From NCBI GenBank assembly GCA_016699365.1, contig CP064973.1:507524-571523 (forward strand): a stretch of DNA of 64,000 nucleotides. The letters are read 5' to 3'. Below the pieces are notes generated by a model. The model saw only the letters and a list, made by a program, of their open reading frames with translations, made no database searches and was not told the DNA's origin. This DNA comes from Candidatus Nomurabacteria bacterium. GTDB taxonomy: Bacteria; Patescibacteriota; Minisyncoccia; Phycocordibacterales; UBA9973. Every line of letters starts with the position of its first letter. Positions within the stretch are counted from its first letter, which is position 1. Below, one piece after another: positions 2,227 to 41,884 of this stretch. Made by a program: the position numbers and the translations under genes.

Positions 2227-2233
2227 ATAAAAA

Positions 2234-2266
2234 AAATCCTTTGTTTGATCAAAGGATTTTTCTTTT
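2234..2266 (+). terminator. rho-independent terminator (AAATCCTTTG-tttgat-CAAAGGATTT plus T-run)
   Basis: 10-bp stem and T-tract immediately after the TAA at 2224-2226. Confidence 0.65.
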
Positions 2267-2269
2267 GGC

Positions 2270-2341
2270 TTATTTATTGAGTTTGTGAGGATTGTGATTT
2301 GGGCAAGATTTATTACTACAACGTTCCGGTATCGTTTTAGG
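2270..2341 (-). pseudogene. decayed duplicate of the topA 3' end (last ~23 codons: PKTIPERCSNKSCPNHNPHKLNK*)
   Basis: Minus-strand translation matches the authentic topA C-terminus TKTIPERCSNNKCPNHRPDKLNKPVK*. The nucleotide alignment runs from ggcttattta through caacgttccggtatcgt. Confidence 0.6.
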
Positions 2342-2348
2342 TCACAAG

Positions 2349-2427
2349 TCAATAATTCTTCGTCAAGAATTATTGCTCGCGACCCCGACTCGCGGTTTCT
2401 GTTGCTACAGAAACATCGCTCCGTCCG
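2349..2427 (+). repeat. GC-rich multi-hairpin element, copy 1: hairpin CAATAATTCTT/AAGAATTATTG, core CTCGCGACCCCGACTCGCGG, hairpin GTTTCTG/CAGAAAC, tail ATCGCTCCGTCCG
   Basis: Homologous to 14959-15030 and to the reverse complement of 39521-39593. The second hairpin shows compensatory substitutions between copies. Confidence 0.55.
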
Positions 2428-2461
2428 ACGAAGACGATTATAAATGCAAATAAATTTGCAT

Positions 2462-4690
2462 TTATTTAACTGGCTTATTTAGTTTATCTGGGCGGTGGTT
2501 AGGACACTTATTGTTACTGCAACGTTCAGGTATCGTCTTCGTCCCTTCCATCATAAGGCTTCCGCACATATCACAGATACGGCCTGTCGGTTTTGCTTTG
2601 ATTGCGTTTTTACAATCTGGATAGTTTGAGCAAGAATAAAATATTCCAAATCTTCCTTTGCGCTCCATCATCTCACCTTTTTTACAAACCGGACATTCTA
2701 CGCCAGTCATCTTTTTCTTGCGCTCTTCTTCGTCTTCTTTTATAAATTTACATTTTGGATAACGTGAGCAAGATATAAACATTCCAAAACGCCCTTCGCG
2801 TATTACTAGTTTTCCACCGCCAGATTTTGTAAGTTCCTTTTGTTTACCATCTTTATCTGTTCCGCAGAGTGGGCAAGGTTCTCCAATTTCTTTTGGCCCT
2901 TCCATGATTTTACCTTCAATAGTTCTTCCACCCATACAGTTTGGAAAATCTGCACAAGAAAGAAATTTTCCGTTCTTTCCTAGCTTTATGTACATTTCTT
3001 TGCCGCACACTGGGCAAGGGAATTCTTTTGGTCCAGCTCCTAGGTTTGTAATCTTATCTATTTTGTCTTTTGCTTTTACATCTTTTGTAAATGGCCCATA
3101 GAAATCTTTTAGAGTTTTTACATATTCTTTTTTACCTTCGGCAATATCGTCGAGATTGTCTTCCATATCTGCAGTAAATGTATCTGATATGTAGTCCATA
3201 AAGTTTGCTTCAAGAAAACTTGAAACTACATCACCTGTATCAGTAGGGAAAAGTGTACGGCCTTCTTTTGTTACATATCCGCGCTCTTCGATTGTGCGCA
3301 TGATTGATGCATATGTAGACGGGCGTCCTATACCGCGAGATTCAAGTTCTTTGACTAGTCCAGCTTCAGTGTATCGAGATGGAGGTTGTGTTTCTTTTTC
3401 TGTACTACGTAAGTCCACAAGTGTTATGGTCTCTCCAATAGAAACTTTTGGTAGCTCTACATCTTCTCCTCGAGCGTCTGTATCTACAGTGAGCCATCCT
3501 GGGAAAATAACTCGTGATCCATTTGCAGTGAAGTCTGGAATATCACTATCGATATTTGCTGTAATTTTTGTACGCAACACTTTTGCATCTACCATTTGTG
3601 AAGAAACAGCTCTTTCCCAGATTAGGCGGTATAGTTTTTGCTGTTCTTCGGTGGAGCCTTCGCGAAGATTTTCAACATGAGTCGGGCGGATCGCTTCGTG
3701 AGCCTCTTGAGCGTTTTTGGATTTTGTTTTATAAGTATGAGCTTCGGCATATTCTTTTCCATATTTTTTTGCGATAAGAGCAAGTATCTGATCTTGTGCT
3801 TGTTTACTAAGATTTGTCGAATCTGTACGCATGTACGATATGTGTCCAGCTTCATAAAGTTTCTGTGCGACTTGCATAGTGCGGGATGGAGAAAATCCAA
3901 GACGAGTTGAAGCAACTTGCTGAAGTGTTGAGGTAGTAAAAGGTGCACGTGCTGATCTTTTTTGTTCGGTTTCTTTTACGTCTGTTACTTTCCAAGTTCC
4001 TTTTTTACCTTCTGCAAGAATTTTGTTTACTATTTTCTCATCACGAGGTTCTTCTACACACGAAAGGGTTAGAGCTTCTTTTTTTGAAGTTTTAAAATCT
4101 CCATCAATAACCCAGAATTTTTCAGGAATAAAAGCACGAATCTCACGTTCGCGTTCCATTATGATACGAAGTGCAGGGGATTGCACTCGTCCAGCTGAAA
4201 GTCCATAACGAACCTTTTTCCAGATAAGTCCTGACAGATCGTAGCCGACAAGTCTATCCAATACTCTACGAGCTTCTTGGGCTTTTACAAGTTTTTCATC
4301 TATATCACGAGGGTGCTTGAGAGCTTCCTCGATTGCTTCTTTTGTGATTTCATTGAAAGCTACGCGCTTGATATCACTCTTCACTTTCTTATCTGCATCT
4401 AGAATTTGTTTTATATGCCAAGAAATAGCCTCTCCTTCACGGTCCGGGTCAGTTGCAAGTATTATAGAATCAGCTTTGTGTGCAAGGGTCTTTAGTTCAC
4501 TTATGACTTTTTCTTTACCAACAGAATTTTCATAGTGTGGTACAAACCCAGCTTCTATATCAATAGCTTTTTTATTTGATTTTGGAAGGTCTCGAATATG
4601 TCCAACAGACGCGCGAACAGTGTACTTGCCGTCCAAGTACTTTTCTATAGTCTTTGCTTTTGATGGTGATTCGACGATTAAGAGTTTCAT
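2462..4690 (-). CDS. topA: DNA topoisomerase I with four C-terminal Cys4 zinc ribbons
   Basis: 742-aa ORF. N-terminal TOPRIM region MKLLIVESPSKAKTIEKYL, catalytic region with active-site Tyr (ISYMRTDSTNLS), then repeated CPxCG...C..C zinc-ribbon modules. Confidence 0.95.
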   Translation of the reverse strand: MKLLIVESPSKAKTIEKYLDGKYTVRASVGHIRDLPKSNKKAIDIEAGFVPHYENSVGKEKVISELKTLAHKADSIILATDPDREGEAISWHIKQILDADKKVKSDIKRVAFNEITKEAIEEALKHPRDIDEKLVKAQEARRVLDRLVGYDLSGLIWKKVRYGLSAGRVQSPALRIIMEREREIRAFIPEKFWVIDGDFKTSKKEALTLSCVEEPRDEKIVNKILAEGKKGTWKVTDVKETEQKRSARAPFTTSTLQQVASTRLGFSPSRTMQVAQKLYEAGHISYMRTDSTNLSKQAQDQILALIAKKYGKEYAEAHTYKTKSKNAQEAHEAIRPTHVENLREGSTEEQQKLYRLIWERAVSSQMVDAKVLRTKITANIDSDIPDFTANGSRVIFPGWLTVDTDARGEDVELPKVSIGETITLVDLRSTEKETQPPSRYTEAGLVKELESRGIGRPSTYASIMRTIEERGYVTKEGRTLFPTDTGDVVSSFLEANFMDYISDTFTADMEDNLDDIAEGKKEYVKTLKDFYGPFTKDVKAKDKIDKITNLGAGPKEFPCPVCGKEMYIKLGKNGKFLSCADFPNCMGGRTIEGKIMEGPKEIGEPCPLCGTDKDGKQKELTKSGGGKLVIREGRFGMFISCSRYPKCKFIKEDEEERKKKMTGVECPVCKKGEMMERKGRFGIFYSCSNYPDCKNAIKAKPTGRICDMCGSLMMEGTKTIPERCSNNKCPNHRPDKLNKPVK

Positions 4691-14886: not shown

Positions 14887-14958
14887 TACTTGTTATTAAT
14901 TTTCTTGGCTGTGGGACTTGGACTCGGTCACGAGTTACTAAGTCTGCTCGTGTGAGTA

Positions 14959-15030
14959 CACACTGCGCGGACTAAGTACTCTCGACCCCGACTCGGCGAC
15001 AAGCATTCTTCGTTTCACTTAGAATCTTGT
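14959..15030 (+). repeat. GC-rich multi-hairpin element, copy 2 (core CTCGACCCCGACTCGGCGAC, rearranged flanks)
   Basis: Shares core and CACTGCGCGG tail motifs with 2349-2427 and rc(39521-39593). Confidence 0.45.
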
Positions 15031-15045
15031 ATACCGCCTGCGTCT

Positions 15046-15133
15046 TTCTCGTCCAGGTCTGGCGAGCAATCGAGCATAATTTTTTATAAAATAATTTATA
15101 AAAAATTTCGCTTGCTGCCAGACCTGGACTCGA
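15046..15133. repeat. inverted duplicate of the tRNA-Gln 3' end (GTCCAGGTCTGGC, 13 bp perfect, ~24 bp imperfect) forming a long hairpin with a 34-nt AT loop
   Basis: 15051-15063 is the reverse complement of 15117-15129, which is the T-arm and acceptor 3' half of the minus-strand tRNA. Confidence 0.7.
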
Positions 15134-15185
15134 ACCAAGATAACCTCCTCCAGAGGGAGGTGTCCTACCATTAGACGATCTGGCA
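15115..15185 (-). tRNA. tRNA-Gln (anticodon CUG)
   Basis: Manual fold on the minus strand: acceptor TGCCAGA/TCTGGCA (bacterial Gln U1-A72), D arm GTCT/GGAC, anticodon stem CCTCC/GGAGG with loop CTCTGGA (anticodon CTG), T arm CTTGG-TTCGAGT-CCAGG. CCA is not encoded. Confidence 0.85.
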
Positions 15186-19141: not shown

Positions 19142-22100
19142 ATGAAATTTTTATATCTTAAAACAAAAATAAATAAAATTTCAAATTTTTTTAATTTTAA
19201 AAAAGTTCTAACCATTTTTTTAATTGTGGCATTTTTATTTAGTGGTTTTACAGACATGGTTCTGATGCGTGTTTTAGACAAAAGATCAGAAGAGCCTGTT
19301 GTAAAAAATGCAGAAGCGGCCACCTATCAATTTTTCCCAACTGACGTAGTAGTCGAGACAGGCACTGAGCAAAATGTCACATCTGCGACTATTGCTGCAA
19401 CCGAAGGAACAAACTTAGGTTCTCATCAAGGAATGATGACAAACGATGGTTTCCATTGGCAAGTTGCTGGTGCAGGTGCATCTGGTATCTCTATGGTTGT
19501 TACCATAGGTGGAGTCGGGCTAAACGGTGCAAACAAACTCGATATCGGTACAGAGATAGATATGGATGCTACAGCGTACAGTATGCTTTTTCAGATATGC
19601 GACTTTACTTCAACAACCAACGTAGACAACGCAGCCGATGCAAACTGTACTGGAGGCGGGTGGCGTACAATAAACACTCAGAATGCATCAAACGCCGATG
19701 TAGCATATACGGATACTGCAAACGATCAGTTGCGATGGCAACTTTACAATGGTGTTTTTTCCAACGGAACATCTGATGCCGGTACACCTATCGATACACC
19801 ACTTACGTACTTCGTGAATGGAAGTAATGAAATGAAATTTCGGTACTACTCTACAACAAGCTCTACTTCTGTTGTATCTATAGACTATCTAACTGCATTT
19901 GCATATATAGACTCTGTGTACTATGCAGCAGACTATGTAGATCAGGTTTCTGGTGGAGGTACGGAGACAGGGGTGTATGTAAACTCTGTTCCGATAGTTA
20001 ACAACGCTACCGCATGGACTTCTGCAAGTACAAACGACAACAACCGTGTAGGAGTATCTGCAACTTCGCAGGTCGTAGACTTCTATTTGTCATATCAAAA
20101 TATCAAACAGTATACGGGGATGAATACCATACTCGTCGGTTCTTCGGTGAACTGTACTGGTGCAACAACTATCCGACAGTATTTGTACAACTTTACTGAT
20201 AGCGCATGGGATCAGATAGGTTCGGATGTTTCGTGTACGACATCGGACGTAGATAGATATTTTGCGCACAACTCGGCAGTTGATGGAGGATTTGTATTCA
20301 ATGACTACATATCAGCAGGTGAGATGCGCGTTCGATGGGCGTCGACTGCGTCTGTGACAAACGGTATTTTTGTTGACTGGCAATATGTAATGCTCGGTTC
20401 TGTAAATACAGATTCATCTCTGTGTGAGATATCTTTTGGTACAGGTACTGCAACAAACTGCACAAACACTCGAACTCTCAATACTCTTGCTGCAGCATCT
20501 ACTTTTGATATCGCAGGTGAAGACGAAGCTGCTGCTATGGGAACAGGAGAAGCAAATTCATTTTATCCAAACGATACCGATCAGGATACTACTGTTGAAG
20601 AGGGTGTATCTGCAAATATATCTGTACCGGTAACAGTTCCTGCCAATGCACAAGTGGTTGGTATAAACTGGTCTAGTCGTACGACTTCGCGCAGCACTGG
20701 AACTACGAGAGTTACAAATAGTTTGAGGGATTACTCAGGACTAACTTCTACTACTGGTGGATGGACGGATGTCGGAGCTGCAGTAAACGCAACAACACAG
20801 ACTTATCAAGACAATGTTATAACAGCAGCTGTTTTATCATATGGGCAACAAATAAATCCAGAGGACTATGTCGACACAGTGAACGGTCGTATGAATATGC
20901 GTCTACGTACGTCTACGTCAGGAGCGACAACGGACAACTCTACAACAGCATGGGATTTTGCAATGATGTCTATTCAATGGATAGAGGATTCTAGTAATCC
21001 TACAGTTACGTACCAGTTTACACCTACCGGACAAACTCTGGTTACAGGTACAGATACAACAGCAAATAATACTATTGCCGCGGGAGCAAACGGCGCAAAT
21101 ACTGGCTCATGGAAAGGTACACTTGCTGATGACAATCGTCACTGGGAGCTTACTGGAACAGCGAGTGGTATAGATGTAGAGCTTTTCATGAACGGGGTAA
21201 AGCTCAATGGGGCAAACACTATAATAGTACAGTCTGAAATAGACGTAGATGCTACAGCTCCGACATTGCTTGTACAGATATGTGATTGGGTTTCAACTAC
21301 AAGCGTAGACCATGCTGCAGATTCAAATTGTACAGGAGGAGGGTGGAGGACACTCAACTCTCGTGATGCGGTAATAACACCAACTACAGCAACTGCATAT
21401 ACATGGAACGTCTATGACGGTAAGTGGTCCAACGGATCCAATACTCCAGTTTCTACTCCACTTACGAACTTTGTTACAACCGACTCAAACAAGCGCGTTT
21501 TGGTCAGGTACTATTCAACAACAAACGCTACAACAGCCGGTAACTTCGCGATAGATTATTTGCGTATATATCCTGTGATTAATCCTGTCTATGAACCAGG
21601 TGACGCAACAGCACTTACAAACTCTTTTACTGGAGATTACACAAATGCAAATACAGTCACACAAGGAGGTGCAGACAATACGGACCTTCAGTGTCTCGGT
21701 ACAACCGGTGGGCCAGACTGTTATTTGTCATTTTTCAATGTCAAAACGTATCCGAGTATGAATACAATTCTTGCTCGTTCAGAGTTCGCGTGTACAGCAA
21801 CAACAGAAGCTCCTGAAATAAAAATGGCACTAAGGAATTTTACAACTGGTGCATGGGACGACATAACGACAGAAATACCAAACTGTTCAACAACGGACAC
21901 AGTACGTATCGGTGCCAAAAACAATATTACGGTCAGTGACTATGTTTCAAATGGTGAAGTGCGCTTGCGATATTATAGATCATCTGGAGCTGGTACTGGA
22001 GCAATCCAGATAGACTATTCATATATAATGCTTGGAACTACGAATTCGGATTCTGCTGGGGCCTATTGTTTCATATCATTTGGGACAAACTCAGCAAATG

Positions 22101-23149
22101 ATTGTACTGCAACTCGTACAATAGATATGAATGGTTCTACAAACAACGGTACGACATGGCAGATACTTGCAGAAGATGAGTCGACAAACAGAGGAGCAGG
22201 AGAGGCGAATGACTTCTATTCCTTTGATGTAGATATGAACGCGACAGCTTCTCAGGAGGGGTCGGCCTCGCATACCAAATTTAGCTTGAGTGGAGAGCCA
22301 GCGTACGGCGCTATAACAGGTATTTTCTTTTCATCTCAACATATGGCTGGTACAGCTGGTACTGTCGCCTTAAATATCGCAGACTATTCTGGATATAACA
22401 CAGCAGCAGTTGCTGCGGGAGGGTTCATTGCTCTCGGAGCGACTGCAACAACGGCACTTGTATATACAGACAACATAACCGTAGGTACAGCTATATCTGG
22501 AGGTGCAGCTGGTTATATGACAAACCCCGATGACTTGGTAAATACCTCAGGTGATGAAGGTTGGTTTAGGTTGCGTACATCGACAGACGGTAGTTCGGCG
22601 TCAAACGCAGTTCGGCAATGGGATTTTGCAATGATGTCTTTGCAGTGGGTGGAGACCGAAGATAGGACTATATCATTTGATATATCAGATACCACTATAG
22701 GATTTGGTCCACTTACAACATCGAATGCTCGCTATGCAACAGGGGATGCAGCTGGTAGCGATACTGAGGCTACAGCCCATACTCTCACAGCGTCTTCAAG
22801 TGCAGCTGGTGGATATACAATAACAGTAGAAGGTCCTACACTAACTAGTGCTGGCGGCACAATAGATGCAATTGGTAGTACGAATACCGCTTCGAGCGCA
22901 GGAACAGAACAGTTTGGAATCAAGGCTACAGTAGCAGGTATTTCATATTATGATGCCGTAGATGATACATATAGTGGTTCTGGTTATGGATACGACGGCA
23001 CTTCTGGTGCGTCAACATTTGCAACACAGTCACAAGGAGATGGATTTACTTCAACTTATTCAGTTGGTTATATTGCCAACATGTCCACAGGAACAGAAAC
23101 AGGTGCGTATTCTACAGATCTAAACTACATAATGACAGGGAACTTCTAA
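19142..23149 (+). CDS. giant Thr/Asn/Ser/Gly-rich surface protein (1335 aa) with N-terminal TM, two ~510-aa internal repeats and a C-terminal domain shared with the next two genes
   Basis: Repeat 1 (~19440-20990) and repeat 2 (~21130-22660) share ICDFTSTTNVDNAADANCTGGGWRTIN / ICDWVSTTSVDHAADSNCTGGGWRTLN and WDFAMMSIQW / WDFAMMSLQW. The C-terminus ...YIANMSTGTETGAYSTDLNYIMTGNF parallels the paralogs. Confidence 0.7.
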   Translation: MKFLYLKTKINKISNFFNFKKVLTIFLIVAFLFSGFTDMVLMRVLDKRSEEPVVKNAEAATYQFFPTDVVVETGTEQNVTSATIAATEGTNLGSHQGMMTNDGFHWQVAGAGASGISMVVTIGGVGLNGANKLDIGTEIDMDATAYSMLFQICDFTSTTNVDNAADANCTGGGWRTINTQNASNADVAYTDTANDQLRWQLYNGVFSNGTSDAGTPIDTPLTYFVNGSNEMKFRYYSTTSSTSVVSIDYLTAFAYIDSVYYAADYVDQVSGGGTETGVYVNSVPIVNNATAWTSASTNDNNRVGVSATSQVVDFYLSYQNIKQYTGMNTILVGSSVNCTGATTIRQYLYNFTDSAWDQIGSDVSCTTSDVDRYFAHNSAVDGGFVFNDYISAGEMRVRWASTASVTNGIFVDWQYVMLGSVNTDSSLCEISFGTGTATNCTNTRTLNTLAAASTFDIAGEDEAAAMGTGEANSFYPNDTDQDTTVEEGVSANISVPVTVPANAQVVGINWSSRTTSRSTGTTRVTNSLRDYSGLTSTTGGWTDVGAAVNATTQTYQDNVITAAVLSYGQQINPEDYVDTVNGRMNMRLRTSTSGATTDNSTTAWDFAMMSIQWIEDSSNPTVTYQFTPTGQTLVTGTDTTANNTIAAGANGANTGSWKGTLADDNRHWELTGTASGIDVELFMNGVKLNGANTIIVQSEIDVDATAPTLLVQICDWVSTTSVDHAADSNCTGGGWRTLNSRDAVITPTTATAYTWNVYDGKWSNGSNTPVSTPLTNFVTTDSNKRVLVRYYSTTNATTAGNFAIDYLRIYPVINPVYEPGDATALTNSFTGDYTNANTVTQGGADNTDLQCLGTTGGPDCYLSFFNVKTYPSMNTILARSEFACTATTEAPEIKMALRNFTTGAWDDITTEIPNCSTTDTVRIGAKNNITVSDYVSNGEVRLRYYRSSGAGTGAIQIDYSYIMLGTTNSDSAGAYCFISFGTNSANDCTATRTIDMNGSTNNGTTWQILAEDESTNRGAGEANDFYSFDVDMNATASQEGSASHTKFSLSGEPAYGAITGIFFSSQHMAGTAGTVALNIADYSGYNTAAVAAGGFIALGATATTALVYTDNITVGTAISGGAAGYMTNPDDLVNTSGDEGWFRLRTSTDGSSASNAVRQWDFAMMSLQWVETEDRTISFDISDTTIGFGPLTTSNARYATGDAAGSDTEATAHTLTASSSAAGGYTITVEGPTLTSAGGTIDAIGSTNTASSAGTEQFGIKATVAGISYYDAVDDTYSGSGYGYDGTSGASTFATQSQGDGFTSTYSVGYIANMSTGTETGAYSTDLNYIMTGNF

Positions 23150-23215: not shown

Positions 23216-24313
23216 ATGATAAAAAAAATCACAAGTTCAATAATGATACTTTCTGTCATCACTGCAAACTTTGTGGGATTTAGTGATACAGCTTTTGCTG
23301 CAAGTGTAACAACTTTCTCTGATACACTTTCTACACTCACAGCCTCAACTGCGGCGAACCACGAAATACTTTTTATAACTCCAACTGGTGTAGAGGCCAA
23401 CAATGACACGATGATTTTTACTTTTACAGGCTTTGATGGTACATCACTAGACGCAATTGCATTTGGAGATGTAGATCTAGCAGAAAGTACAAATGCCAGC
23501 TGTTCAAACCCAGGTACATGGAACGAGAAAACACTTGCTGCCACAGACGCAGCTTCTACATATGGTGTAGCCACAAACTCCACAACACTTCTTTTTGATC
23601 CACCAACAACATCTGGATATATTACAGCTGGTAATTGTATAAGAATCAAAATCGGAACAAATGCTTCTACTGGTGTTGCTGGTACAAACCAGATTACAAA
23701 CGGAGGAGCTGCAACTGCACACTCAATTGCTATATCAGGAAACTTCGCTGACACAGGAACAGCATCTATAGATATTATTGCTGATGATTCTGTTAGCTTA
23801 AGTGCAACAGTTGATTCAGCTATATCTTTTACTGTAGATGATACAACTATAGGTTTTGGAACCTTGGATGCCGCCGCCGCTAGGTGGGCAACAGGTGATG
23901 CAACAGGAACATCTTCTTTGCCAGGAGATACATCAGGTGCACATCAAATGACACTTTCTACAAACGCAGCCTCTGGATATTCAATCACTTACAACGGAGC
24001 AACGCTCACAAGTGGTGCAAATACTATAGACGTAGCTACTATATCTGAAGATGATGATGGAACTCCTGCCTCAGAGCAGTTCGCGATCGGGCTAGACGAC
24101 AATGGTAGTAATGTAACAATAGTTTCAGACTATGATTTAGCTACTACAAACAGTTATAAGTTTGTTGCAGGTACTACTACAACAGTTGCGTCTGAAACTG
24201 CGCCTACTGCCACAGAGACATTTGATGTTCAGTATATTGCGAATATATCTACAGTGACAGAAGCAGGATCATACTCAACAAATGTTACTTGGATAGCAAC
24301 AGGTAACTTTTAG
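23216..24313 (+). CDS. secreted surface protein, paralog A (signal peptide, C-terminal shared domain ending ...TWIATGNF)
   Basis: Signal peptide MIKKITSSIMILSVITANFVGFSDTAFA. The last ~165 aa are near-identical to the 24407 product and homologous to the C-terminus of the giant protein. Confidence 0.7.
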   Translation: MIKKITSSIMILSVITANFVGFSDTAFAASVTTFSDTLSTLTASTAANHEILFITPTGVEANNDTMIFTFTGFDGTSLDAIAFGDVDLAESTNASCSNPGTWNEKTLAATDAASTYGVATNSTTLLFDPPTTSGYITAGNCIRIKIGTNASTGVAGTNQITNGGAATAHSIAISGNFADTGTASIDIIADDSVSLSATVDSAISFTVDDTTIGFGTLDAAAARWATGDATGTSSLPGDTSGAHQMTLSTNAASGYSITYNGATLTSGANTIDVATISEDDDGTPASEQFAIGLDDNGSNVTIVSDYDLATTNSYKFVAGTTTTVASETAPTATETFDVQYIANISTVTEAGSYSTNVTWIATGNF

Positions 24314-39401: not shown

Positions 39402-39473
39402 GGCCCTATCGTCTATCGGTTAGGACACATCCTTCTCAAGGATGGAAGCGCGGTTCGATTCCGCGTAGGGTCA
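39402..39473 (+). tRNA. tRNA-Glu (anticodon CUC)
   Basis: Manual fold: acceptor GGCCCTA/TAGGGTC, D arm GTCT/GGAC, anticodon stem CATCC/GGATG with loop TTCTCAA (anticodon CTC), T arm CGCGG-TTCGATT-CCGCG. Layout parallels E. coli tRNA-Glu. Confidence 0.9.
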
Positions 39474-39484
39474 CACATAACAAA

Positions 39485-39512
39485 AAGACTGAACTGCTCC
39501 AGTCTTTTTGTT
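39485..39512 (+). terminator. tRNA-Glu terminator hairpin (GACTG-aactgctc-CAGTC plus TTTTTGTT); the outer stem extends to 18 bp (39474-39517)
   Basis: cacataacaaaaagactgaactgctccagtctttttgttatgtg. Confidence 0.55.
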
Positions 39513-39520
39513 ATGTGTGA

Positions 39521-39593
39521 CGGGCGCAGTGATGTTTTATGAGCACATAAAACCACGAGCCGGGGTCGCGAGAAATTTCCTTCAGGAAATTTA
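39521..39593 (-). repeat. GC-rich multi-hairpin element, copy 3 (minus-strand sense: hairpin AAATTTCC/GGAAATTT, core CTCGCGACCCCGGCTCGTGG, hairpin GTTTTAT/ATAAAAC, tail ATCACTGCGCCCG)
   Basis: The reverse complement aligns with 2349-2427. Hairpin-2 stem bases differ from copy 1 (GTTTCTG/CAGAAAC) but keep their pairing. Confidence 0.55.
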
Positions 39594-39641
39594 CTTGTGA
39601 CACAAAATAGCCAGGTATTTATTTTATGCTAAAATAATTCC

Positions 39642-41437: not shown

Positions 41438-41544
41438 AGGTTTTGATTATAACTTAGACATTTTGAATGTGCAAAATTTTAGTTTAAAAGGCTCCTATGG
41501 CGCAGTCGATTATCTAAAGTTTTGTTTCTGGAAAACTCTTTTTT

Positions 41545-41633
41545 ATCCCCACTATTTAAAAGTACGGATATTTTCTTGCTAGAAAATTCCTCGAGTTTCG
41601 CGCCGTCGCGCTCACTAGTCTTTTAAATAGTGG
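41545..41633. repeat. 16-bp perfect inverted repeat (CCCCACTATTTAAAAG ... CTTTTAAATAGTGGGG) enclosing 57 bp with internal hairpins (ATTTTCT/AGAAAAT; CGCG-ccgt-CGCG)
   Basis: Read directly from the sequence. It lies in the 447-bp non-coding gap between ftsZ and trxB. A second ~13-bp inverted-repeat pair sits at 41671-41683 / 41777-41791. Confidence 0.7.
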
Positions 41634-41849
41634 GGATCTGGTATGTTTGAATCCTAACTCAGGCTTTGCCTTGTATCAAGAAACATACACGAACACACGA
41701 GAGTAAGTGTTACGAAGTAAAAAATATTCTGTTTGAGCGAAGCGAGTTTATATTTTTAACAAACTCGAGTGTAGTGAGTGTTTTTCTTGATACACGCAAA
41801 GAAGTTTTTGTGTTACTTTTTTGAAAAAGTGACAAAAGCAAATATAACA

Positions 41850-41880
41850 AAACCCACCAAAGGTGGGTTTTGTATGAAAG
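41850..41880. terminator. bidirectional terminator downstream of ftsZ (AAAACCCACC-aaa-GGTGGGTTTT)
   Basis: Hairpin plus T-run 5 nt past the ftsZ stop. Confidence 0.65.
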
Positions 41881-41884
41881 TTTT

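Follow-up and report, generated by a model that had tools for sequence, protein, structure and literature searches.

Three GC-rich, multi-hairpin sites in the genome of a Candidatus Nomurabacteria bacterium are copies of a widespread and apparently undescribed family of small insertions of ultra-small (CPR) bacteria. These insertions lie in the ends of tRNA, tmRNA and a few protein genes, the end of the host gene is restored, and each carries a conserved folded core next to a segment complementary to its target. The family is best read, with moderate confidence, as a non-autonomous, site-specific mobile element that acts as a folded single strand, probably DNA, and possesses a guide-like helix. 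The stretch of DNA analysed, hereafter the window, comprises 64,000 nucleotides (assembly GCA_016699365.1, contig CP064973.1, positions 507,524 to 571,523 of the forward strand).

A preliminary description of these sites, made from sequence alone, proposed a module of approximately 75 nt present in three copies, with stems that change in sequence yet keep pairing, and suggested either a structured ncRNA family or a miniature integrative or REP-like element targeting gene 3' ends. The observation is confirmed, as are the proposed tRNA-Glu, tRNA-Gln and topA contexts and the duplicated gene 3' ends, and of the two readings the integrative one is favored by the evidence. Three corrections nevertheless apply: the functional strand is the reverse complement of the one described, that is, the sense strand of the neighboring gene; the GC core does not fold on itself; and the unit is larger than 75 nt and includes an inverted copy of the target that had been seen only in part.

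Occurrence and distribution

The 17-nt core CTCKCGACCCCGRCTCG has exactly three matches in the window (2376+, 14979+ and 39556-), while shuffled sequences are expected to contain 0.03 and none of 100 shuffles reached three, such that chance is excluded. Alignment of the three regions revealed a further shared segment, GTCACRAGT, at one end. A covariance model built from 17 unrelated short copies of 66 nt each recovers all three sites at slightly wider limits, with scores of 40-42 bits and E about 1e-8, and additionally identifies a fourth, divergent and reduced copy, at E about 1e-6, downstream of ftsZ (Table 1).

Beyond the window, the same module (hereafter M) occurs in more than 120 loci of species-representative genomes, almost all of which belong to Patescibacteria. 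By record title these comprise 45 Saccharibacteria, 56 other Patescibacteria, 6 Elusimicrobia from five MAGs, 10 unclassified, and 3 others that may be mis-binned (individual loci are designated below by L numbers). The pattern matched only one of 2.9 million viral contigs, and BLAST of a short copy found nothing in the phage or plasmid collections. Similarly, a scan of the window against Rfam 15 at gathering thresholds returned only the two tRNAs, and permissive scans (E<=10) of three copies yielded only generic hairpin and miRNA noise on the D-D' palindromes described below, and nothing on M. Full-text literature searches, including one with the literal core sequence, returned only E. coli tRNA-Gly primers and unrelated papers, and the element is not described in a paper on Patescibacteria tRNA introns, in a 224-motif survey or in an intergenic-feature preprint; no prior description was therefore found, although the libraries searched do not cover all journals.

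Table 1. Features of the four copies and of their host genes within the window.
Copy	Feature	Coordinates	Strand	Basis
1	Core module M (P2, P3/hp2 and P1/hp1)	2340-2429	-	Covariance model, 42.4 bits, E 5e-9; folds as predicted
1	D': perfect 12-nt complement of topA 2532-2543, spanning the junction (2 nt upstream plus 10 nt downstream)	2427-2438	-	Inverted repeat; sequence reading
1	Apex hairpin (12-bp perfect AT-rich stem) overlapping the topA stop codon	2440-2465		Inverted repeat
1	topA, host gene	2462-4690	-	ORF
1	D_new: functional topA 3' end from the junction (between A2542 and C2541) to the stop codon, encoding a C-terminus KTIPERCSNNKCPNHRPDKLNKPVK	2462-2541	-	Repeat analysis; translation; sequence reading
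1	D_old: displaced in-frame topA C-terminus KTIPERCSNKSCPNHNPHKLNK with stop codon, directly after GTGAC	2270-2340	-	Direct repeat (2274-2338 against 2475-2539), 72% over 65 nt; translation
1	Terminator-like hairpin with T-run following the displaced topA end	2229-2264		Inverted repeat; sequence reading
2	Core module M (long hp1 and hp2 type)	14926-15048	-	Covariance model, 41.8 bits
2	D': 18-nt complement (16/18) of the tRNA-Gln T-loop, T-stem and acceptor 3' strand (15117-15134)	15046-15063	-	Inverted repeat
2	AT-rich apex hairpin between tRNA-Gln and D'	15073-15112		Inverted repeat; ssDNA fold
2	tRNA-Gln(CTG), host gene; D_new is C56 to the 3' end (15114-15132), junction between 15133 and 15132 (T55 and C56)	15114-15185	-	ARAGORN; Rfam; repeat analysis
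2	D_old: displaced tRNA 3' end (CGAGTCCAAGTCCCACAGCCA...), not compatible with the resident acceptor 5' strand	14898-14926	-	Direct repeat (against 15104-15132), 72%
3	tRNA-Glu(CTC), host gene (3'-end class of junction)	39402-39474	+	ARAGORN; Rfam
3	22-bp perfect hairpin joining the tRNA 3' end (D_new) to D'; the AACTGCTC loop resembles the recurrent hp3 loop	39470-39521	+	Inverted repeat (39470-39491 with 39500-39521)
3	Core module M	39519-39602	+	Covariance model, 39.7 bits
4	Divergent reduced module lacking GGGGUCG, downstream of ftsZ	41560-41619	-	Covariance model, 32.7 bits, E 1.5e-6
4	Perfect 16-nt inverted repeat (CCCCACTATTTAAAAG / CTTTTAAATAGTGGGG) enclosing copy 4, equivalent to a D':D closing helix	41547-41635	-	Sequence reading

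Conserved structure and strand of the module

Across the loci from the genome-contig and viral-contig scans plus the window, the model gives 158 hits, of which 126 distinct sequences were used to evaluate the structure. In this set 95.1% of cells form pairs, as compared to 72.5% in shuffles, and 22 of 23 pairs show changes on both sides. The covariation score is 0.492, while shuffles give 0.133 (0 of 500 reach the observed value) and slid partners give 0.02-0.08. Though this alignment is fitted to the model, covariation in the 3-bp helix P2, the middle pair of which is CG 38, GC 37, AU 33 and UA 8, was already plain in the raw listings. Both hairpins keep pairing while their sequence changes, within the window as well as among the homologues, consistent with the covariation proposed in the preliminary description. 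The GC core itself, previously thought capable of folding alone, pairs elsewhere: one half pairs with the distant ACTYGTGAC segment (the complement of GTCACRAGT) to form P1, while the other pairs with the conserved "tail" to form P2 and P3.

The strand on which the module folds can be deduced from a G.U wobble in P1 that is kept in 120 of 126 sequences and that would be an A-C mismatch on the other strand; the folded strand is therefore the sense strand of the neighboring gene. Consistent with this finding, the hairpin tips are strongly strand-specific: GCGNAGC occurs 60 times on the sense strand and 0 times on the antisense strand, GNA triloops number 48 against 1, and only 4 GNRA and 2 UNCG loops occur among 219 distinct hairpin domains. 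As d(GCGNAGC) appears to be the classic ultra-stable DNA mini-hairpin, whereas selected RNA hairpins tend to favor GNRA and UNCG loops, these data provide an indirect hint that the active form is single-stranded DNA. The argument is only indirect, as G.U pairs and tandem G.A loops suit RNA equally well. When folded as ssDNA, whole units give three adjacent helices, D:D', P2/P3 and P1, with z-scores of -7.7 to -11.7.

The module is not recognized as a tRNA, as neither ARAGORN nor the Rfam tRNA model hits M, and only a 14-nt stretch equals E. coli tRNA-Gly(GCC) from the variable loop into the T-stem. Of interest, GUCGGGGUCGCGAG of the core (e.g., window 2376-2392) is identical to E. coli tRNA-Gly(GCC) from the anticodon-stem 3' end through the variable loop into the T-stem 5' strand, and the partner strand CUYGU equals the T-stem 3' strand of that tRNA, including its G.U wobble. 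This could reflect descent from a tRNA half or mimicry of the target.

Genomic context and insertion junctions

M is one part of an insertion of about 90-225 bp that contains no ORF. On the sense strand the order is always the gene up to the junction, D (the gene 3' segment from +1), an apex hairpin (often a terminator, or "hp3" with a CTGC loop), D' (the reverse complement of the target, running exactly 2 nt past the junction), M, and then a displaced second copy of D. In the window, copies 1 and 2 lie inside inserts of 201 and 206 bp, respectively, flanked by imperfect direct repeats of the host gene 3' end, and an inverted copy of the same gene end lies next to the "tail" of the module in copies 1, 2 and 3 (Table 1). 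Neither window tRNA gene encodes the 3' CCA, whereas the displaced tRNA-Gln end of copy 2 does (..CACAGCCA).

Of 191 evaluable tRNA and tmRNA genes in the loci, 109 have M within 400 nt downstream on the same strand (median gap 66 nt), while only two have it on the opposite strand and 82 lack it; twenty isotypes and two tmRNA genes are hit. In the main class of insertion the junction lies exactly between T55 and C56 of the T-loop, with D starting at C56 and typically ending 0-3 nt after the tRNA end, while in a second class the junction lies at the tRNA 3' end (..TG/CAC.., the slash here and below marking the junction). In topA it lies at GA/CGAAGACGAT in the window and at CA/CAAAAACC in relatives. 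The first nucleotide of the distal D is C in 93 of 107 copies, and can pair with the first G of P1. D', in turn, always ends with the complement of positions -2, -1 and +1 (GAA for TT/C, GTC for GA/C, and GTG for CA/C), and therefore spans the intact target in a fixed register. Beyond the conserved T-loop, the reverse complement of D' matches its own tRNA at 0.53, as compared to 0.31 for permuted pairs, with a maximum of 0.35. In 54 of the 109 cases a terminator-like hairpin with a T-run lies between the tRNA and M, such that read-through transcription is often unlikely.

Variations upon this arrangement were also observed. Six copies at different tRNAs in different genomes (L006, L017, L037, L083, L090, L100) share an extra CGAA-AGTGTACTCAC mini-hairpin between M and the resident T-loop sequence, just 3' of GTGAC, and in this subfamily the first nucleotides of the distal repeat therefore appear to travel with the element. 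In L013 and L112 (about 6.3-6.6 kb), a variant sits upstream of a tRNA gene: a displaced 5' fragment (ATTCCGGGGTAG) precedes the module, and the target-like hairpin (CAGCGG..CCGCTGAGCTAC, D-arm sequence) lies on its 3' side, a mirror arrangement aimed at the D-loop. Lastly, the spacer between ftsZ and thioredoxin reductase that holds copy 4 (window 41438-41884, - strand) contains no tRNA gene, but holds loose pieces that look like decayed elements, namely GGATTCAAAC (D'-like) and ACTCGCTTCGCTCAAAC (typical of hp1 tips).

Evidence for insertion and turnover

Young copies possess perfect flanking repeats, of 47 nt in L028 (including the terminator hairpin downstream of the tRNA), 38 nt in L050 and 102 nt in L102. 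L111 and L015 are tandem arrays, and several loci hold decayed or sister modules between the tRNA and M.

Further evidence comes from topA. A metagenome scan with the C-terminal half of topA returned 80 related loci, in 12 of which the model finds M 29-77 nt after the stop codon; L044, from the earlier genome scan, carries the same insertion. All are at the same codon (..GTK/TIPERC..), and each is followed by a displaced C-terminus that is in frame at the junction, though in L162, L044, L122 and L185 this displaced copy is truncated, interrupted or frameshifted. In L122, the interruption is a 32-nt hairpin-forming insert (TTTGCCATGCCGAAGCTTCAAGCGAAGGCTGG) containing a GCGAAGG tip. The closest relative, L122 at 91% identity, carries a clearly different M, so the site has been hit or replaced independently. 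Moreover, D' follows host-specific synonymous codons: GACGAAGACGAT in the window, CAAAACCAT in L122 and AAAAACCA in L144. Two C-terminal types (..CPNHRPDK.. and ..CPNHNPHK..) are scattered among related topA genes (L122-L201) whether or not the element is present, which would fit repeated cassette-like replacement of the gene end.

In L144 the distal copy resembles the C-terminus of related topA genes (93/80/80/73% per 15 nt) while the proximal working copy does not (67/67/60/47%), as would be produced by an element bringing its own gene end, and L155 shows the mixed pattern expected from a crossover inside D. Window copies 1 and 2 do not fit so simply, as it is their distal copies that look foreign, the distal end of copy 2 being of a tRNA-Gln(TTG) type. 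Recombination between dispersed M copies, or replacement of an earlier element, may explain this difference, and relatives at about 80% identity did not settle which D copy is native. No strain-level empty site and no excised-circle junction was found, and two apparently "empty" twins are probably truncated contigs of the same genotype.

A search for an enzyme encoded in cis was likewise negative. Clustering of 862 ORFs from the 8-kb flanks gave no recurrent recombinase, transposase or reverse transcriptase, though only a few of the clusters were compared to Pfam, and only housekeeping genes were seen among the 19 window ORFs scanned. An HTH protein occurs in 9 loci and large serine recombinase genes lie in 5 of 120 (L002 4580-6253, L112 4790-6409, L015, L086 and L090), but only those of L002 and L112 are adjacent to M, ending within 30-165 nt of a copy. 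A search for cargo-bearing versions, in which larger segments lie between D copies, found only two. In L015, a 6.6-kb segment containing a serine recombinase separates a tRNA-like 3' end from a tandem M array, while in L041 (480-1656) a 1.05-kb stretch holding small ORFs, tRNA-His and tRNA-Arg(TCG) lies between a tRNA-Arg(TCT) 3' end and a matching distal repeat after M, and is either a cargo-bearing version or the product of recombination between copies. Elsewhere in the window, GC content rises to 0.40-0.44 between 19000 and 26000, against about 0.36 in the remainder, in a region containing a 1335-aa ORF (19142-23149) and ORFs without Pfam matches (e.g., 23216-24313).

Proposed mechanism and alternative explanations

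Taken together, the architecture, the exact junctions, the covariation and strand specificity, the patchy and recurrent occupancy, the preservation of the host gene through the proximal D copy and the decay of the distal copy fit a non-autonomous, site-specific insertion element that keeps its host gene intact and whose conserved core works as a folded single strand, most likely DNA. The geometry suggests a mechanism. In the fold, the phosphate between -1 and +1 lies 2 bp from the inner end of the D:D' helix, the phosphate after GTGAC lies 1 bp from the inner end of P1, and both lie at the same three-way junction, so that one active center could exchange them. It is inferred that D' acts as a guide that selects or positions the target, and that an enzyme supplied in trans, which has not been identified, cuts and joins at this junction such that a unit carrying its own D recombines with the D of the target. 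Exchange in one direction would excise a unit carrying D, while the reverse would insert it at a matching target and give the flanking direct repeat, in the manner of a Campbell-type integration. Several observations sit less comfortably with this model, including the absence of a recurrent enzyme in the flanks and the inconsistency as to which D copy is native. In addition, in recent insertions D_new and D_old are identical over 47-102 nt while D' is imperfect, which fits either homing between conspecifics or a true variable-length target duplication, and the model leaves unexplained how D' is first made for a new target.

An RNA-based mobile element, akin to a SINE or a retrohoming element, is less likely but remains a serious rival, and an RNA stage cannot be excluded. 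In such a scenario the hp3-D'-M(-D) transcript would pair with the target through D', a nicked target strand would prime reverse transcription, and variable second-strand joining would produce the variable-length duplication. The variable left junction and fixed right junction, with duplications of 7 to about 100 nt in recent copies, are as expected of target-primed reverse transcription and constitute the main support for this reading, while the conserved G.U wobble, the tandem G.A internal loop and the covariation are typical of RNA, and the guide-like D' ends exactly 2 nt upstream of the junction. Weighing against it are the terminator-like hairpins that precede half of the tRNA-linked copies, the GNA rather than GNRA or UNCG tips, the lack of an identified reverse transcriptase in the flanks and of an identified promoter, and the reported absence of group II introns from Patescibacteria (PMC13011429). 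More doubtful still is the possibility that the copies are bare attachment-site remnants, or minimal attP-only elements, of classical tyrosine-integrase islands, with M serving as arm DNA bound by proteins as a duplex. The identity block, which runs from the T-loop or 3' end to the end of the tRNA and includes tmRNA targets, is as would be usual for integrase sublocations (Williams, 2002), the unit is about the size of an attP site, and larger segments lie between D copies in L015 and L041. Arbitrary stem sequences with maintained pairing, a strand-specific G.T pair and strand-specific loop types are not, however, expected of duplex protein-binding arms; furthermore, the core is conserved across phylum-level lineages, no integrase recurs nearby, and matches in the viral, phage and plasmid collections are limited to the single viral contig noted above.

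That M is a functional cis-acting RNA of tRNA transcription units, serving for example as a 3'-processing, stability or termination signal with the repeats as by-products, is unlikely. Such a role would account for the strict strand and position of M in tRNA 3' flanks and for its deep conservation of sequence and structure, but not for the 82 tRNA and tmRNA genes that lack it, its presence after topA and ftsZ, its occurrence in only 12 of 80 related topA loci, the tandem arrays and decayed copies, or the terminator-like hairpins that often precede it. An intron is excluded because the distal D copy decays while the proximal copy stays functional. A diversity-generating retroelement was rejected because differences between the repeats are not confined to adenines, a hairpin-forming transposase footprint because the palindrome apex holds element-specific sequence, and a tRNA-like minihelix because it fails for topA.

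Relationship to known systems

Among known systems, the folded single-stranded attP of CTX-phi-type IMEX elements is one of the closest analogues. There, too, one strand folds so that two inverted copies of the target form a duplex mimic of the chromosomal site, integration leaves both arms inside the element next to a regenerated target, and function is strand-specific; D and D' likewise form long hairpins in all three copies. The targets described here are, however, the tRNA or tmRNA T-loop, the tRNA 3' end or a codon of topA rather than dif, no XerC/D-type half-sites were recognized, the element is under 250 nt without genes, and it carries a three-helix core absent from IMEX attP sites as well as an inverted arm extending 2 nt into the upstream flank of the target, which a pure self-hairpin would not need. 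Integron attC sites also work as folded single-stranded DNA, are 57-141 nt long and are conserved in structure more than in sequence. In contrast, the ends of M are AGNCGGAG... and ...ACTYGTGAC, with no RYYYAAC/GTTRRRY core sites, cassette arrays, or attI or intI context; copies sit singly after tRNA genes, topA and ftsZ, the core sequence is strongly conserved, and a target-complementary segment is present.

Like the IS200/IS605 family and its miniature derivatives (PATEs), and REP elements with RAYT transposases, the element is small, non-coding, hairpin-rich and strand-specific, with many copies at gene 3' ends, and in that family cleavage sites are chosen by base pairing with a short guide inside the element. 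IS200/IS605 elements nevertheless make no target duplication, carry no copy of the target, insert 3' of a fixed 4-5 nt sequence, use guides of 4-5 nt rather than 7-45 nt, and have conserved hairpin sequences, whereas here direct repeats of 7-102 nt flank the insert, targets differ except for C at +1, and the hairpins vary while the junction core is conserved. No Y1 transposase was seen among the few flanking ORF clusters compared to Pfam or the window ORFs scanned. M is also unlike REP/BIME sequences, 20-40 nt imperfect palindromes with a conserved 5' tetranucleotide in clusters of alternating orientation, in being a 63-120 nt multi-helix module in one orientation relative to the gene, and unlike MITEs in that its two ends differ, the inverted repeat is made of target sequence and lies on one side of the core, and duplication length is variable.

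Genomic islands and prophages integrated by tyrosine integrases into tRNA or tmRNA genes, such as mycobacteriophage Ms6 and tycheposons, share the target sublocations, the identity block restoring the gene 3' end, the displaced 3' end at the far side and the remnant arrays next to tRNA genes, but differ in that the element has no integrase or cargo and possesses a covarying single-strand structure and an inverted target copy, neither of which is a feature of known attP sites. Finally, the group I intron internal guide sequence and P1 helix offer a parallel in which a guide helix spans the junction and defines the reactive phosphate by its distance from the helix end, with a conserved G.U wobble next to the other junction. 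Here the core is far too small (63-120 nt) and matches no intron model, splicing is not required given the decay of the distal "exon" copy, and a duplicated target is not an intron feature.

The element is of a known kind, a small site-specific integrative element, although there is a substantial chance that its design of a guide plus a conserved core marks a new class. It is possible, though tentative, that M plus D' constitutes a programmable, nucleic-acid-guided insertion device of about 130 nt that chooses its integration point by a 7-45 nt guide helix spanning the target junction at a fixed register of 2 bp, uses the three-way-junction core as a platform for strand transfer by an unrecognized trans-acting enzyme common to Patescibacteria and Elusimicrobia or by the nucleic acid itself, and rewrites the gene 3' end as it goes. 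This would make it a new class of guided mobile element, distinct from bridge-RNA IS110 elements, from IS605 and TnpB, and from group II introns.

Biological significance

Candidate-phyla-radiation bacteria have tiny genomes and are thought to hold few mobile elements, yet this family sits behind more than half of the tRNA genes sampled around it, is present at four copies in the 64 kb examined here, and is conserved across phylum-level lineages. The covariance model provides a means by which annotators can mask or label these sites and the pseudo-tRNA ends and pseudo-C-termini they create. If the guide role holds, target choice would be programmable by simple base pairing, and the small core would be a tractable object for finding the partner enzyme. 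The element repeatedly replaces the 3' ends of essential genes (tRNAs, tmRNA, topA) with copies that in some loci appear to come from another lineage, and it is therefore a route of horizontal sequence exchange and a source of dispersed repeats for rearrangement.
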